Virus record (IMG/VR): IMGVR_UViG_2778260996_000006
Direction: 5' to 3' (one strand)
Source of the DNA: a virus
Lineage: Duplodnaviria; Heunggongvirae; Uroviricota; Caudoviricetes
DNA length: 26,721 nucleotides
Numbering within the stretch: the stretch's first letter is position 1; each line of letters opens with the position of its first letter. The notes beneath the pieces are model-generated. The model had not been told where the DNA came from. It saw nothing but the letters and a program-made list of their open reading frames with translations, and searched no databases. Of this stretch, positions 3,177 to 26,721 are shown piece by piece. Position numbers and translations under genes: made by a program.

Positions 3177-3763
3177 TAGCCGCCCCCCAGTAATGACGCC
3201 ACGTTACCCGTGATGCTTTTCAGCAGTGAAGTATCTGGAGGCTTGGTGGTTTTGTTGCCGCTGTTCTGTACCGCCGACGTGCTGGCCCCTTCCTTCATGT
3301 TGGTTTTATCCGCGACGGAAATCTGCTGTGTCCGGGAGATAAGGACCTCCCTCAGGGTGAGGACGGCGGACAGGACGTTTTCGGTTGTCTTGTCCGTCGT
3401 CACTTCCAGCGCCCGGATCAACATGTTGCTGTACAGTCGTTTACCGGTTACCACATCGAAGGGGATACGGCTTTCCTGCAGATCCAGTAGCTCCTGATAC
3501 GTCTGCTGAGGACTCAGGCCGAGCAGGCTGGTAGCCGTCAGGTTACTGGCAAAATCCAGCAATGCGCCACCACCGGCGAAACCAACCTCCATCACCACTT
3601 CTGACGGTTTTTTATAGGCATGATCAGCGACAGCGGCCCCGACCTCTACCGGATGCTCTGTTATTTCAAGCATATCTGTATGCTTCTCTGAAATAACAAC
3701 ACAGGGAACAATCATTCCTATTTTTCTGCTCTGCTGATGAAAAAGTGTAGAGAGAATATCCAC
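3176..3763 (-). CDS. hypothetical tail protein (195 aa), start overlaps tape-measure stop (TGATG)
   Basis: ORF track; translational coupling to the upstream gene. Confidence 0.5.
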   Translation of the reverse strand: MDILSTLFHQQSRKIGMIVPCVVISEKHTDMLEITEHPVEVGAAVADHAYKKPSEVVMEVGFAGGGALLDFASNLTATSLLGLSPQQTYQELLDLQESRIPFDVVTGKRLYSNMLIRALEVTTDKTTENVLSAVLTLREVLISRTQQISVADKTNMKEGASTSAVQNSGNKTTKPPDTSLLKSITGNVASLLGGG

Positions 3764-22326: not shown

Positions 22327-22539
22327 TTAAGCCTTTTTATCGTTTTGTGAGCCATACAACAGCCAATTAGGGTCGCAATCCAATGCTATAGACATTTCAA
22401 GAAGATAACGTGGCCGAGCAATAACACCACTTTCAATTCTGTTTATTGCCTGCTGGCTCACTCCTGTGAGCTCAGCCAACGTAACTTGCGTCATTTTGAG
22501 TTCTTTACGTCGTTCTTTTACTCGGGTCGCTAAGGTCAT
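22327..22539 (-). CDS. cro: Cro-like HTH repressor (70 aa)
   Basis: Start trimmed to ATG 22539 (GAGGTGA 7 nt upstream); XRE-type HTH; divergent from CI; about 60% identical to the CI N-terminal domain. Confidence 0.8.
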   Translation of the reverse strand: MTLATRVKERRKELKMTQVTLAELTGVSQQAINRIESGVIARPRYLLEMSIALDCDPNWLLYGSQNDKKA

Positions 22540-22659
22540 TGCTTTCACCTCATACAATTTTAGTGGTATTTAGCAACAACAAATGAGGTTTGTCAAATAC
22601 AACAAAAATTGTTTTTAATGTGGGTATACACATTAATACAACCCAGAAGGACTAATCCC
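22540..22659. promoter_or_regulatory. cro/cI divergent promoter-operator region (OR-like)
   Basis: Palindrome TTAATGTG-N6-CACATTAA at 22615-22636; repeated ATACAA-N6-T(T/G)GT(A/T)T sites at 22552-22569 and 22597-22614. Confidence 0.5.
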
Positions 22660-23283
22660 ATGTCTCTCGCAGCCCGTTTTAAAGCACGTCGTTTGGAATT
22701 AGGAATGACTCAAGTGGAAGTAGCGAATTCTGCAGGGGTTAGCCAACAATCCATAGAATCCATCGAAAGTGGACGAACCAGAAAGCCACGCAATCTTCTG
22801 GATCTGGCTAAGGCCTTGAAATGTAGCCCAGACTGGCTACTGAACGGTAAAAATATTATGCCTCTCGCGGAGATAAGTACCAGACGCATACCTATATTAA
22901 GTTACGTTCAGGCAGGAGAGCTTACAGAAGCAAGAGACATAACAGATCTGACAGGGGAATTTGAATATATTTTGGCAGACTCTGACATTCCAGAAACATG
23001 CTTCGCATTACGTATTGATGGCGACAGCATGCAACCAGAGTTTAAAGAAGGAGACATTGTTATCATCGATCCTGATCTATGTCCTGCACCAGGGGAGTTT
23101 GTTGTCGCCAAAAACGACGGTCACGAAGCTACATTTAAAAAATACCGTCCATTAGGAATCGGCATCGACGACTTTGAATTAATCCCCCTAAATCCTGATT
23201 ACCCTATTTTTCGTAGTGCAGATATGAACTTACAGATCATAGGTGTAATGATCGAACACCGTATTTACCGCCGTAAACGTTAG
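22660..23283 (+). CDS. cI: CI-type prophage repressor (HTH + S24 LexA-like peptidase)
   Basis: Start trimmed to ATG 22660 (AAGGA RBS); N-terminal HTH; Ala-Gly site (VQAGEL); Ser (GDSM) and Lys (ATFKKY) catalytic dyad. Confidence 0.9.
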   Translation: MSLAARFKARRLELGMTQVEVANSAGVSQQSIESIESGRTRKPRNLLDLAKALKCSPDWLLNGKNIMPLAEISTRRIPILSYVQAGELTEARDITDLTGEFEYILADSDIPETCFALRIDGDSMQPEFKEGDIVIIDPDLCPAPGEFVVAKNDGHEATFKKYRPLGIGIDDFELIPLNPDYPIFRSADMNLQIIGVMIEHRIYRRKR

Positions 23284-23302: not shown

Positions 23303-23348
23303 GGGAGGCGTAACAGCCTCCCTTACCCCATTTGTAAAGTCTTACAAA
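23303..23348 (+). promoter_or_regulatory. stem-loop after cI (GGGAGGC-GTAACA-GCCTCCC) plus 18-bp palindrome TTTGTAA-agtc-TTACAAA (OL-like)
   Basis: Read directly; third ATACAA-N6-TTGTAT site at 23418-23435 lies just downstream. Confidence 0.35.
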
Positions 23349-23605
23349 TTAAATTCACTTAAATATCAATAAAGTAGTATTCACACCCCACAAAATACCA
23401 CGTTTGCGGTTTACACAATACAACTCAAATTGTATCTTTAGCCACAAGTCGAACGGCGCGACTCTAAACCATGCGTCGGGACCGTGGCGGGACAGGATGT
23501 CGGCAATACGGGTCAGTAAGTTCCCTTTGGGGTGCGGCGAAGCACTGCCTACTGATACAAGTCGAAGCCGCCGAACCACCAAAGTGAACTGAATGAGGAA
23601 ACGGC

Positions 23606-23800
23606 GTGAAAACATATAAACCGCTCAAAGGTGAATGCCCTGCTTGCCAAACACAGCTTCAGACACCAAAGCCAAAACGATACCAAATCAACGAATGTTA
23701 TGAGCACTGCCCTGGATGTGGTGCTTTCCTGCATACCATTGCAACGCACTGGCGTGTCCGCTTCAACCTTGTGGTACCACGTACGCACAATACCAACTGA
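23606..23800 (+). CDS. small zinc-ribbon protein (64 aa), candidate early regulator
   Basis: GTG start with GAGGAAA RBS; CPAC ... C-x3-C-x2-C cysteine arrangement; first gene downstream of cI in N-like position. Confidence 0.5.
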   Translation: MKTYKPLKGECPACQTQLQTPKPKRYQINECYEHCPGCGAFLHTIATHWRVRFNLVVPRTHNTN

Positions 23801-23831
23801 ATCATCCATGTAATTGCTGTGTGTAGTCTTT

Positions 23832-23857
23832 GCCCGCCGCAAGTGACGGGCTTTTTT
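23832..23857 (+). terminator. intrinsic terminator after the zinc-ribbon gene
   Basis: GCCCG-N10-CGGGC hairpin followed by TTTTTT. Confidence 0.5.
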
Positions 23858-23916
23858 ATGTCTGAAAGCGCACTCGCAACAGCGCGCTCCCCGATATGAA
23901 AAAAGGAATACAACCG

Positions 23917-24066
23917 ATGAAACCTGAACACCTCTATCGACTGACGGGGCGCGATGTTCTCCGTTATCGCCGTAAAAACTTCGATTTGATGACCGGTCTG
24001 GCCGTTGCCACTGCGCTCGGTCTGATCATCACTTTCATTCTCCTTGTTGCGAGGACCACAGTATGA
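23917..24066 (+). CDS. small membrane peptide (49 aa, C-terminal TM helix), translationally coupled to next gene
   Basis: ATG 23917; C-terminal LAVATALGLIITFILLV; stop overlaps next start in ATGA; below ORF-track cutoff. Confidence 0.45.
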   Translation: MKPEHLYRLTGRDVLRYRRKNFDLMTGLAVATALGLIITFILLVARTTV

Positions 24067-24965
24067 GTTTAGAAACCAGTCTCGAACTTAATAATCAACT
24101 TCTGGCACAACATAATGCGCTGCTTGAACGTCTTATCCGCACAATGGCATCAGGTATTGTTATGCATCCTGACACGATTTCACGAGTGCAGGAATGTCGG
24201 GATACAGCAACTGAAACTGAAAATATGTCAGCGGCAATGACACTGGATGATCTGGAGTTCAGCGACGTTATCGCACTGGCTGGTTTCTACCCGGTAGCCA
24301 CCCCTATCACAGAAGACATGCTGCAACGTGCTGTTGCCTACCGTGATGCTGAAGGCGATAAACGAGTAGTTCAGATTGATCCTCTCGACAGCGCATTGCA
24401 GGGCGTCAAACGAGCCAGGGCACTGCATAAACCCGCTCTTCTGGACCTGTCCCGTAACATTCTTAAGTTCTGGGACGACCTGCCAACCATCGGCGAGCGA
24501 CGTGCTTTTGCCGAGCAACTACTTGATGCACCTGCAGATGGGCGTGATGAAGTTAAGCCGAAAAAGGCCAGTAACAAAGATGGAGAACGCACGGGGCCGT
24601 TTTACGTCAAAAATGTATCCGGCACAGCAGCCAGTGAACTCCACACCTTACGCAAGTTGAACGAGATGCTTAAAAAAGGCCATATCGAGATCAACCGTGT
24701 TGAGTACCTTCAGCTGCAGGAAGAATTTGCACGCAGAGACGCAGCAAATTCCAGCCAGAATAATGACGCCAAAGATGACCATACAATTGATTTCGCGGCA
24801 CTACGCAAACAAGCTGAAGGGTTGATCCTCCAGTTAGCAAAAGGGGGTTACCGGGCAGAAGCTATTGCAATTCTGGAAAAACAGGGAGCCAGGAAACTTG
24901 GTGAAGTAACGGATGAAAATCTCGCTGAAGTAATCACCCTGGCTGAAAAAGCACTGGAGGGTTAA
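24063..24965 (+). CDS. hypothetical early protein (300 aa), function unknown
   Basis: ORF track; uniform coding-like composition; no motif recognised. Confidence 0.65.
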
Positions 24966-24967
24966 TC

Positions 24968-26269
24968 ATGCCAGACGTTCATGCACAACTTTCTCCATCA
25001 TCAGCGCATCGATGGATGCGCTGCCCAGGAAGTCTGGCGCTGGAGGCCACACAACCGGATAAAGAAACAACTTTTGCAATCGAGGGCACTGCAGCGCACG
25101 CGCTTGCTGAAAAAGTTCTACGAAACAGGCAAAGCCACCCGGAACACTACGCCGGATGCAATGTTTCTATGTTTCTCGGCTCATACCCCCTTCGCGAAAA
25201 TCCTGATGATACATCTGGCCCACAGGTGGATGATGAAATGGTCGAAGCCGTTGGCCGGTATGTTGATACGGTCTGGACTCTTGCACAGAATAATGAACTA
25301 TTGGTTGAACAACGTGTTGATTTCTCACATATAACGGGGGTGGAAGAATCTTTCGGAACTGCCGACGGCATAATCATCGCTGGTAACGAATTACAAATCC
25401 ACGACCTGAAATATGGCAAAGGCGTCCGCATTGATGCAGAACAAAATGAGCAACTACAACTGTATGCTCTGGGTGCGCTCGAACAATTCAGCATGCTGTA
25501 TGACTTTGAGACTGTAAGATTATTTATTCACCAGCCAAGGCTCAACCACGTTTCAGAATGGTCGTTAACCGTACAGGAACTTCAGTCTTTCGGTGAACGG
25601 GCACAGGAGGCCGCAACCAGTGCGATCCTTGTTCTCAATATTGCTGAATGCGAAGGCATTGAGACACTACCGCTGGAAAACTTCATACCTGGAGAAAAAC
25701 AGTGCCGCTTCTGTAAAGCAAAAGCTATTTGCACTGCCCAGAAAATGCAGCATTTACAAACAGCGGCCAGCGATTTTGAAGATCTGACAAAGCCTGTCAG
25801 CGAAATAATCACCAATGCCAGCGCACGTGTACCTCTGTTAACCATTGAGCAGCTTGCGGAGATCTATAGCCAGGCCGACTTTATTGAATCCTGGCTAAAG
25901 GCAGTACGGGACCGGGTTCACAATGAACTCAATGCCGGACATCCGGTACCGGGGTTTAAACTGGTAACAGGAAAACAAGGTAACCGGGCCTGGAGTGATG
26001 AAGAGGCAGCTCGCGCACTTCTGAAGGACCAGTTCAGGTACAAAACTGAAGAAGTATTCGACTTTAAACTTATTAGTCCCACAAAAGCCGAAAAACTTAT
26101 CAAAAAGGCCAGTCCACGCCGTTGGTCAAAAGTCGAGGCACTGATAACACGAGCTGATGGTAAACCAACCGTCATTCCCGAGTCAGACCCACGCCCCGCA
26201 CTCAATATCAACCCTGTAAATGATTTCGACGACGTATCCGACGATACGCTAACCGCAGACCTCATCTGA
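24968..26269 (+). CDS. PD-(D/E)XK nuclease, Cas4/RecB-like with Fe-S Cys cluster (DUF2800-like)
   Basis: N-terminal [14 protein letters not shown]; catalytic-like GTADG ... [10 protein letters not shown]-terminal C-x2-C-x5-C cluster. Confidence 0.75.
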
Positions 26270-26284
26270 TTTAAGGAAATACCC

Positions 26285-26662
26285 ATGAAACTGAAGCTGA
26301 ACAATGTTCGTCTGGCCTTCCCGTCTCTGTTTGAAGCTAAAACTGTAAACGGCGAAGGCGATCCGCGTTTCTCCGCAGTATTTTTAATGTCTCCCAAACA
26401 CCCACAACTGGAAGAAATCCGTAAAGCTATGAAGCAGGTAGCGAAGGAAAAATGGGGAGAGAAGTGGGAGCCCATTTATAACCAGCTGGAGAAAAAACTC
26501 AATCTGTGCCTGCATGATGGTGATGAAAAAGCAGAGTATGAAGGCTTCCCCGGTAATTTCTTCCTGAATGCTGCTAACAAAGCGCGCCCAGCTGTTCTTG
26601 ATCGCGATCGTTCGCCACTTATTCAGGCTGACGGACGTCCCTATGGTAAGCGTACAGCCTGA
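26285..26662 (+). CDS. DUF2815-like putative ssDNA-binding protein (125 aa, possibly C-terminally truncated)
   Basis: N-terminal VRLAFPSLFEAK resembles DUF2815 proteins as recalled; pairing with the upstream nuclease. Confidence 0.55.
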   Translation: MKLKLNNVRLAFPSLFEAKTVNGEGDPRFSAVFLMSPKHPQLEEIRKAMKQVAKEKWGEKWEPIYNQLEKKLNLCLHDGDEKAEYEGFPGNFFLNAANKARPAVLDRDRSPLIQADGRPYGKRTA

Positions 26663-26721
26663 ACCGTCTGGTCAGAATCTGACGAATTAGACAAAGTGGT
26701 GTCCACCAAATAAGTAGTGGG

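Follow-up and report, generated by a model that had tools for sequence, protein, structure and literature searches.

An operator over a candidate early-left promoter, an HK022-type put-like RNA and an RprA-3'-domain-like module ahead of the replication genes of a temperate Escherichia coli myovirus

The early-left region downstream of the cI-like repressor gene was analysed in IMG/VR virus record IMGVR_UViG_2778260996_000006, a member of the Caudoviricetes represented by 26,721 nucleotides (nt) of DNA, hereafter called the window and numbered from its first letter. Positions 23606 to 24965 had previously been read from the letters alone as an early operon encoding a 64-amino-acid (aa) zinc-ribbon protein, an intrinsic terminator, a 49-aa membrane peptide and a 300-aa protein, and the three open reading frames (ORFs) and the terminator were all found where this sequence-only reading had placed them. 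It had missed the operator-covered promoter and put-like RNA upstream, the match of the terminator region to RprA, and the replication genes that follow. The operon begins with operator and promoter and the put-like RNA; next come the cargo gene, the RprA-3'-like module with its terminator and a conserved hairpin, then the genes for the membrane peptide and the 300-aa protein, and finally those for exonuclease, single-stranded DNA-binding protein (SSB) and polymerase. Identity of the window region to E. coli prophages inserted beside yfhL, and to the induced phages vB_EcoM-606R2, 689R2 and 611R5, is 99-100%; the virus is a temperate E. coli myovirus whose prophage site in relatives is next to yfhL. 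Two sets of loci were used for comparison, namely 80 IMG/VR loci encoding the 300-aa protein (the related loci) and, for gene linkage of the 300-aa family, 107 loci with homologs down to 30% identity.

The operator pattern ATACAA-N6-TTGTAT, with at most one mismatch, was found three times in the window against 0.09 occurrences expected by chance, and the sites were limited to two at cro/cI and one over a candidate early-left promoter (PL). The first two (22552-22569 and 22597-22614, one mismatch each, located by pattern scan) lie between a cro-like gene (22327-22557, minus strand) and a cI/LexA-like repressor gene (22661-23283, plus strand). The repressor carries HTH_3 and Peptidase_S24 matches by domain search and is called a 'LexA family protein' by the Prokaryotic Genome Annotation Pipeline (PGAP) in an identical prophage; a VapE primase gene and the cro-like gene are on the strand opposite to the cI-like gene. 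The third site, a perfect operator at 23418-23435, overlaps the plus-strand promoter TTTACA-17-TATCTT at 23410-23438. A 29-nt stretch of the cro/cI intergenic region (22584-22612) is repeated with 76% identity at 23405-23433, and in heteroimmune relatives homology stops just upstream of 23442, the immunity mosaic breakpoint. From the operator placement and this breakpoint, 23410-23438 was assigned as the CI-repressed PL, in agreement with the earlier view that an early-left operon begins downstream of cI. The repressor is predicted to bind all three operator sites. A hairpin at 23303-23322 (GGGAGGC-GUAACA-GCCUCCC), 20 nt past the cI stop and with a weak U-tract, is possibly the cI terminator. 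The heteroimmune phage vB_EcoM-606R2 (L001 8890-8960) has two copies of CTGTAGGGGT between a divergent 189-aa gene and the RprA-like module, in a region with no recognisable sigma-70 promoter; these copies may be operators of a different regulator acting on the same operon.

An RNA resembling the HK022-type putL antiterminator begins at the predicted transcription start (~23445) and runs to 23516 on the plus strand, with about 80% identity to HK022 putL. Its numbering was anchored on residues named in published work on the HK022 elements (U2, U28, G35/G36, U68, C72 and U74; PMC9378689). The -10-like AACCAT including U28, G35/G36 and GGCGGG at 42-47 are conserved in the window. Stem II is kept by compensatory swaps (GC to CG at pair 38-70 and CG to UA at pair 41-66), its upper part having one base pair fewer than in HK022 putL, and stem I differs from that of HK022 by a further compensatory change (GACG/CGTC to GTCG/CGAC). 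Put-like elements were also found about 100 nt after cI in other lambdoid prophages; no second put element (putR) was found within the window. Where the sequence-only reading had pictured a system of the lambda N type, the locus has a put RNA of the HK022 type instead, and this homology led us to infer that antitermination here would be RNA-mediated rather than dependent on an N protein.

The 64-aa Cys-rich ORF (23606-23800, plus strand; CPAC...C...CPGC) has a GTG start preceded by GAGGA 7 nt upstream, and cysteines at positions 11, 14, 31, 35 and 38. It is carried by about 25 of the 80 related loci and is intact in each carrier; the cassette stands behind two unrelated leaders, with ribosome-binding site and GTG conserved in both. 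Among 5.8 billion proteins its matches form three clusters only. The most distant homolog, from Enterobacter, is 76% identical, with all five cysteines and the CPAC and CPGC motifs invariant and 14 other residues changed. Divergence of the ORF amounts to three synonymous and three non-synonymous changes, too few for a ratio of the two rates (dN/dS), and the best Pfam match, zf-IS66, is sub-threshold (24.3 against a cut-off of 27.3). PGAP never calls the ORF in the annotated relatives inspected, and neither sequence nor fold searches yielded an assignment for its product, as had been anticipated. We take the gene as real but rare, an optional cargo at the nun/N position.

The terminator that follows, predicted to be the first one met by the PL transcript, is part of a 65-nt module on the plus strand (23797-23861), composed of the single-stranded CUGAAUCAUCCAUGUAAUUGCUGUGUGUAGUCUUU, a hairpin GCCCGCC/GACGGGC at 23832-23851 and the run TTTTTT at 23852-23857. 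Because of a C.A mismatch in the stem, the hairpin was missed by a simple terminator scan, and it was recovered by Rfam alignment and RNAfold. A permissive Rfam scan of the window gave a single match, the small RNA (sRNA) RprA (RF00034), at 23752-23861 (E 2.7e-4), with a score below the gathering threshold (48.2 against 70 bits). Within this match 24 of 24 consecutive nt (AAUUGCUGUGUGUAGUCUUUGCCC) are identical to rprA of E. coli K-12, after which come a different hairpin sequence and a U-tail; the 24-mer is unique in the window, and its chance occurrence is 0. RprA in its processed form, RprAproc, consists of the last 47 nt of the RNA, is released by RNase E and is active alone (PMC9262595; PMC6202311). 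The identical segment coincides with RprAproc and retains the AAUU at the processing point, and the layout of an Hfq-type sRNA 3' module is present in full: the U-rich UAGUCUUU, the hairpin and six U residues. Across 60 distinct versions the hairpin stem covaries, with compensated variants such as GCCCGUC/GACGGGC, GCCCCUC/GAGGGGC, GCCUGUC/GACAGGC and GCCCAUC/GAUGGGC, and the prevalent variant is weakened by a mismatch. What had been described as an intrinsic terminator is not a generic one; it is a copy of the processed RprA 3' domain, conserved far beyond this phage.

Conservation of the module was traced in the related loci and elsewhere. The 24-mer, with zero to two mismatches, precedes the peptide gene in 76 of the 80 related loci, including ones where the 300-aa protein is just 69-76% identical. 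The sequence 5' of CUGAAUCAUCC varies, with at least eight contexts among these loci, and homology in heteroimmune relatives starts at 23797-23804. In one subgroup the peptide ATG lies 13 nt past the U-run, and the operon there must therefore be transcribed through the terminator; no sigma-70 promoter was found between the terminator and the 49-aa gene, and that subgroup has no room for one. The exact 21-mer occurs in at least 120 IMG/VR contigs, and 50 of the 80 examined lack the 49- and 300-aa genes. In seven of eight inspected from those 50, a same-strand ORF lies 0.2-0.7 kb upstream, and six of these seven ORFs encode Cro/CI-type helix-turn-helix proteins; at least six unrelated groups of temperate phages have the module downstream of a repressor gene. 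Copies away from the native rprA locus were found in other phages, on plasmids and in N4-like phages. No Rfam family reaches its gathering score for the module in other phages, and no description of such an element was found in the literature searched, the coverage of which was incomplete and is not proof of novelty. The module appears to be undescribed.

Several copies were inspected individually. On NZ_CP068707.1, a Klebsiella-type hybrid plasmid, a copy with one mismatch and a shorter hairpin (L005 3744-4060) directly follows the stop of an 86-aa hypothetical gene and adjoins a RES/Xre toxin-antitoxin pair and umuDC; 28 such places were found on E. coli plasmids. In the lytic N4-like Erwinia phages Ea9-2, Frozen, Rexella, Gutmeister and Tellus, a stretch of 47 nt with about 85% identity to the module lies within or beside a hypothetical gene. 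In the early-left arm of HK022, past nun and IS903 (L207 ~2523, minus strand), a related terminator, UCUUCUUUGCCCUCCGAUGUGAGGGCCUUUUUAU, has the UCUUUGCCC-hairpin-U-tail arrangement in common with the module and is without the UUGCUGUGUGUAG part. In other temperate phages (L087-L166, for example L087 with its core at 3428, L094, L121, L134 and L165), a hairpin and CCACAACA/CACAAC precede the module. The latter agrees with CACAACA, the consensus of the GcvB R1 target by which the anti-sRNA AgvB is defined. These RNAs may act as sponges for GcvB with another 3' domain as their base; this class is absent from Stx phages. An unrelated temperate contig that also carries the module has an Rfam sRNA-Xcc1 match above the gathering score (68.3 bits; L097 12230-12318).

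A second conserved hairpin (AUGUCUGAAAGCGCAC...GCGCGCUCCCCGAUAU) occupies 23858-23897 on the plus strand and closely precedes the ribosome-binding site of the 49-aa gene. Its base, GAAAGCGCAYUC...GWGUGCGCUYCC, shows covariation (AGCGC/GCGCU to AACGC/GCGUU), and its apical insert is variable, from 8 to about 45 nt. This hairpin follows the terminator in the present phage family; in other temperate phages (L087, L092, L094 and L116) the motif directly follows the presumed early promoter and precedes the RprA-like module by about 200 nt. Rfam gave no match for it; roles as a processing site, as a stabiliser of the mRNA or as a further antiterminator are conceivable.

The 49-aa peptide (23917-24066, plus strand) is predicted to be tail-anchored, with a basic N-terminus and one C-terminal transmembrane helix; its hydrophobic C-terminal stretch, LMTGLAVATALGLIITFILLVA, agrees with the earlier description. 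The start at 23917 is that of PGAP and of PHROG 11981 (E 1.4e-36), and a 56-aa reading from 23896 is also open. The TGA stop of the peptide overlaps the ATG of the 300-aa gene as ATGA, again as described before. Within an enterobacterial subfamily the peptide is 63-100% identical, and at 78 of the 80 related loci its gene adjoins that of the 300-aa protein; upstream of distant 300-aa homologs in the 107-locus set it is absent. It is an addition confined to the enterobacterial prophage subfamily. Our guess is that it tethers the 300-aa protein to the membrane, and a Kil- or Sie-like role is conceivable.

The 300-aa protein (24063-24965, plus strand) matches PHROG 6784 over its full length (E 1.1e-179); this family and PHROG 11981 are both annotated as 'unknown function'. 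It has 586 close relatives; in a set of 1.84 billion proteins, its representatives at 50% identity number only 67. Searches of Pfam, NCBIfam, PADLOC and PDB sequences returned no match, which bears out the earlier statement that it has no recognisable motif. The AlphaFold2 (AF2) model was confident, with a predicted local distance difference test (pLDDT) score of 88.4. It shows a long N-terminal helix, a disordered linker, a helical domain at 61-175 with an invariant W137, a beta-beta-alpha-beta unit at 177-233 carrying RKGPFY...VEYLQL, and a C-terminal three-helix bundle at 244-299; in homologs the small beta-beta-alpha-beta unit stands before or after the helical domain, or is absent. The protein is acidic (isoelectric point, pI, 5.2). 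A Foldseek search of the model against the PDB returned nothing, and the BFVD fold matches were small uncharacterised proteins of Enc34, PspYZU01, AH2, eiAU, A18P4 and YuA-like phages. The first five of these phages are presumed by us to carry the same replication module. A tblastn search with the C-terminal domain found only Yersinia YeP4-6 and Hamiltonella APSE P53. The family appears to be undescribed.

Gene neighbourhood places the 300-aa gene with replication functions. It is followed by a plus-strand DUF2800 PD-(D/E)XK exonuclease gene (24968-26269; E 1.4e-109; PHROG 69, exonuclease), which begins no more than 200 nt past the end of the 300-aa gene in 87 of the 107 loci and 0.2-1 kb away in most of the others. 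DUF2815 and PolA follow DUF2800, including in homologs at 30-45% identity, and on this linkage the 300-aa gene was assigned to the replication/recombination module. In the window the plus-strand gene for the DUF2815 or Enc34-type (gp2.5-like) ssDNA-binding and annealing protein (26285-26645) is cut by an insertion sequence (IS), the end of an ISEc8 element at ~26642-26721 interrupting it at about codon 120 of 182; in relatives the gene is intact (549 nt). Further genes after DUF2800/DUF2815 in relatives are PolA, VRR-NUC, SNF2 helicase and integrase. Their replication modules also contain variable genes, either for a TIR-domain protein after PolA or for an Nmad5 'nucleotide modification' protein before PolA (L001 14887-15648; L002 18391-19152; L003 15586-16227). 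Homology of the 300-aa protein to a single-strand annealing protein (SSAP) or another replication protein, which according to the sequence-only reading would have made this an ordinary recombination module, was not found, and the neighbourhood nevertheless points the same way. As an SSAP or recombination mediator the protein was rejected, no sequence or fold match being obtained to RecT/Red-beta, ERF, Rad52/Sak, Sak4 or Gam. It is most likely a replication or recombination accessory rather than a host-takeover factor; the specific role of exonuclease or replisome adaptor is proposed only tentatively. Phages of the Enc34 type have this replication module as well, and those of the YuA, Chi and APSE types appear to have it too.

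Taken as a whole, with moderate confidence, the region is a CI-repressed PL operon that combines a put RNA, an RprA-like module and the opening of a replication module. Upon derepression, transcription would start from ~23445 at the operator-covered promoter, and the first ~70 nt would fold into the HK022-type put RNA, making RNA polymerase resistant to terminators. The polymerase would cross the optional cargo gene for the 64-aa putative zinc-finger protein and reach the 65-nt module that copies the processed 3' domain of the host RprA. Those polymerases that terminate there would release an RNA whose 3' end looks like RprAproc and is probably bound by Hfq and trimmed by RNase E, as is StxS from PR'; those modified by put would continue into the genes of the membrane peptide and the 300-aa protein. 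With this pair of genes the replication/recombination module would begin, made up of the DUF2800 exonuclease, the DUF2815 SSB/annealase and PolA, to which relatives add VRR-NUC and an SNF2 helicase. In this setting the 300-aa protein could serve as an accessory or adaptor of the exonuclease or replisome through its C-terminal three-helix bundle, and the peptide may tether it to the membrane.

Several observations weigh against this account. An HK022-type put was detected upstream of the module in 25 of 75 module-carrying related loci, and the remaining 50 must pass the terminator in some other way. With its C.A mismatch, the window hairpin is imperfect, and the 66-nt fold is no more stable than shuffled sequences (z 0.34). 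The module has not kept the known seed of RprA (nt ~31-69), through which that RNA pairs with rpoS, csgD, hdeD and narP; its own pairing with the rpoS leader is no better than random, with no target predicted. For the 64-aa protein AF2 gave a poor model (pLDDT 63.8), one of helices and not of a ribbon. No fusion of the 300-aa C-terminal domain to an exonuclease was found, a profile search giving only same-family fragments, and the replication module of this window is already broken by the IS in DUF2815. Two candidate explanations were rejected in the course of these comparisons. Activation of rpoS by the RprA route is not indicated by RNAduplex with the K-12 rpoS leader (duplex energy -30.6, against -28.5 +/- 3.1 for shuffled sequences); the module, its seed lost and its rpoS pairing at shuffle level, is no orthologue of RprA. 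Likewise dismissed was a Rosetta-stone fusion involving the C-terminal domain, the only matches being same-family fragments and YeP4-6/APSE P53.

Other explanations of the module and of the cargo gene were weighed. The module might be an efficient terminator only, spread as a recombination linker at a mosaic junction, its identity to RprA reflecting shared ancestry of a terminator cassette and its product being no trans-acting RNA. Its position exactly at mosaic breakpoints (23797-23804 in heteroimmune relatives), its occurrence after unrelated ORFs on plasmids and the lack of a predicted target would all fit. This is nonetheless unlikely, because the invariant part is a single strand of 21-24 nt and the hairpin varies freely with compensation, the reverse of what a pure terminator needs; moreover, the invariant stretch is the conserved core of RprAproc, a regulator on its own, and the analogous phage RNAs with a conserved 3' domain, AgvB/AsxR and StxS, are functional. 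A cis-acting attenuator, in which Hfq or a host RNA on the single strand would set hairpin formation and so gate the replication genes, would account for a module that sits in an operon leader and has to be crossed by transcription, for the many relatives without an HK022-type put, and for the mismatch-weakened prevalent hairpin. Yet no alternative (antiterminator) pairing was found for the module hairpin, and the plasmid and N4-like phage copies lie outside such leaders, so that we regard attenuation as quite improbable. Much the same low probability was given to the 64-aa ORF not being a gene, with 23520-23800 as plain leader RNA: the silence of PGAP, the mere three protein clusters and the weak model speak for this, but it does not sit well with five cysteines and most of the sequence preserved at 76% identity with substitutions elsewhere, with a conserved ribosome-binding site and GTG behind two different leaders, or with an ORF that is intact at every locus carrying it.

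The sequence-only reading had named host takeover, anti-defence or exclusion as common functions of early phage genes at this position. On that explanation the 49-, 64- and 300-aa genes would be accessory and unrelated to replication. They occupy the early-left slot where lambda has kil, cIII, sieB, ral and gam; one product is a small membrane peptide, homology to replication proteins is lacking, the 300-aa protein resembles some nuclease inhibitors in its acidity and its coiled helix at the N-terminus, and the 64-aa gene is swappable cargo. Accessory genes are usually mosaic, however, and the 300-aa family stays upstream of DUF2800-DUF2815-PolA even at 30-45% identity; there is no PADLOC match, and translational coupling of the peptide with the 300-aa gene holds for nearly all close relatives. 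We therefore hold the accessory explanation to be unlikely, and prefer a CI-repressed operon leading into replication. Within that operon, the module is suggested to yield a trans-acting sRNA by analogy with the phage RNAs considered below. A bolder extension, which we rate as rather doubtful, is that portable copies of the RprA 3' domain, borne by many enterobacterial phages as the first terminator of the early operon and also by some plasmids and lytic N4-like phages, with differing sequences fused ahead of them, constitute an extensive and so far undescribed family of phage RNAs. Such RNAs, chimeric and dependent on Hfq, would imitate RprAproc, compete with it or titrate its partner, rprA perhaps being a domesticated member. 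If this were true, phage induction would be linked to the host network of envelope-stress and conjugation control. A functional module RNA would add a widespread class to the few known phage regulators of host sRNA networks (StxS, AgvB/AsxR and DicF), and would offer a handle on the unexplained activity of processed RprA. The 300-aa family, for its part, is a conserved and structurally confident component of the replication module, and its role marks a defined gap in the account of replication in such phages.

Both the put element and the logic of the operon are of known kinds. As in HK022 putL/putR (PMC9378689), the element lies directly after a repressor-controlled PL and is a two-stem RNA of about 70 nt; it differs in being a distinct sequence subtype, with pairs 38-70 and 41-66 swapped, and in belonging to a myovirus with a PolA-type replication module. 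An HK022-type put RNA suppresses termination by way of the zinc-binding domain in the beta' subunit of RNA polymerase; if active, the present element would carry RNA-only antitermination past HK022-like siphoviruses to such a replicon. The module shares with RprA a single-stranded 3' core, a U-rich stretch, a GC hairpin and a U-tail in the same register, whereas the 5' two-thirds, including the 5' stem-loop, have diverged, and it sits in a phage operon leader or 3' untranslated region rather than between ydiK and ydiL. In layout it resembles StxS, for which PR' transcripts ending at tR' supply an RNA that binds Hfq and is active as its processed 3' fragment, and antitermination lets the remaining transcripts read through (PMC7547250). 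Both have a promoter-proximal phage terminator with read-through by antitermination, and Hfq binding by the module is suggested by this analogy. They differ in promoter (PR' as against PL), in antiterminator (Q as against put RNA) and in target, StxS pairing with the rpoS leader, with which the module is not predicted to pair; the likeness is one of layout. The prophage anti-sRNAs AgvB and AsxR have a conserved 3' terminator domain of ~42 nt with variable 5' sequences and are spread among prophages (Tree et al. 2014). The design of a family with a conserved 3' domain is common to both, and some copies of the module in non-related phages carry CACAACA, as does AgvB. The 3' domain of the anti-sRNAs (GUAUCUCAUGCWAUUGCCCGAACCCAYUCGGGC) is different, and they are independent genes of 51-60 nt at the PR' moron site. 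An identification of the module with AgvB/AsxR was accordingly discarded, since the published sequences differ throughout and the module is located in a PL leader. Finally, relative to the Enc34/YuA/Chi-type replication module of DUF2800 exonuclease, DUF2815 gp2.5-like SSB and PolA, the 300-aa gene is the conserved gene in front, and the 49-aa peptide is an extra of the enterobacterial prophage subfamily.

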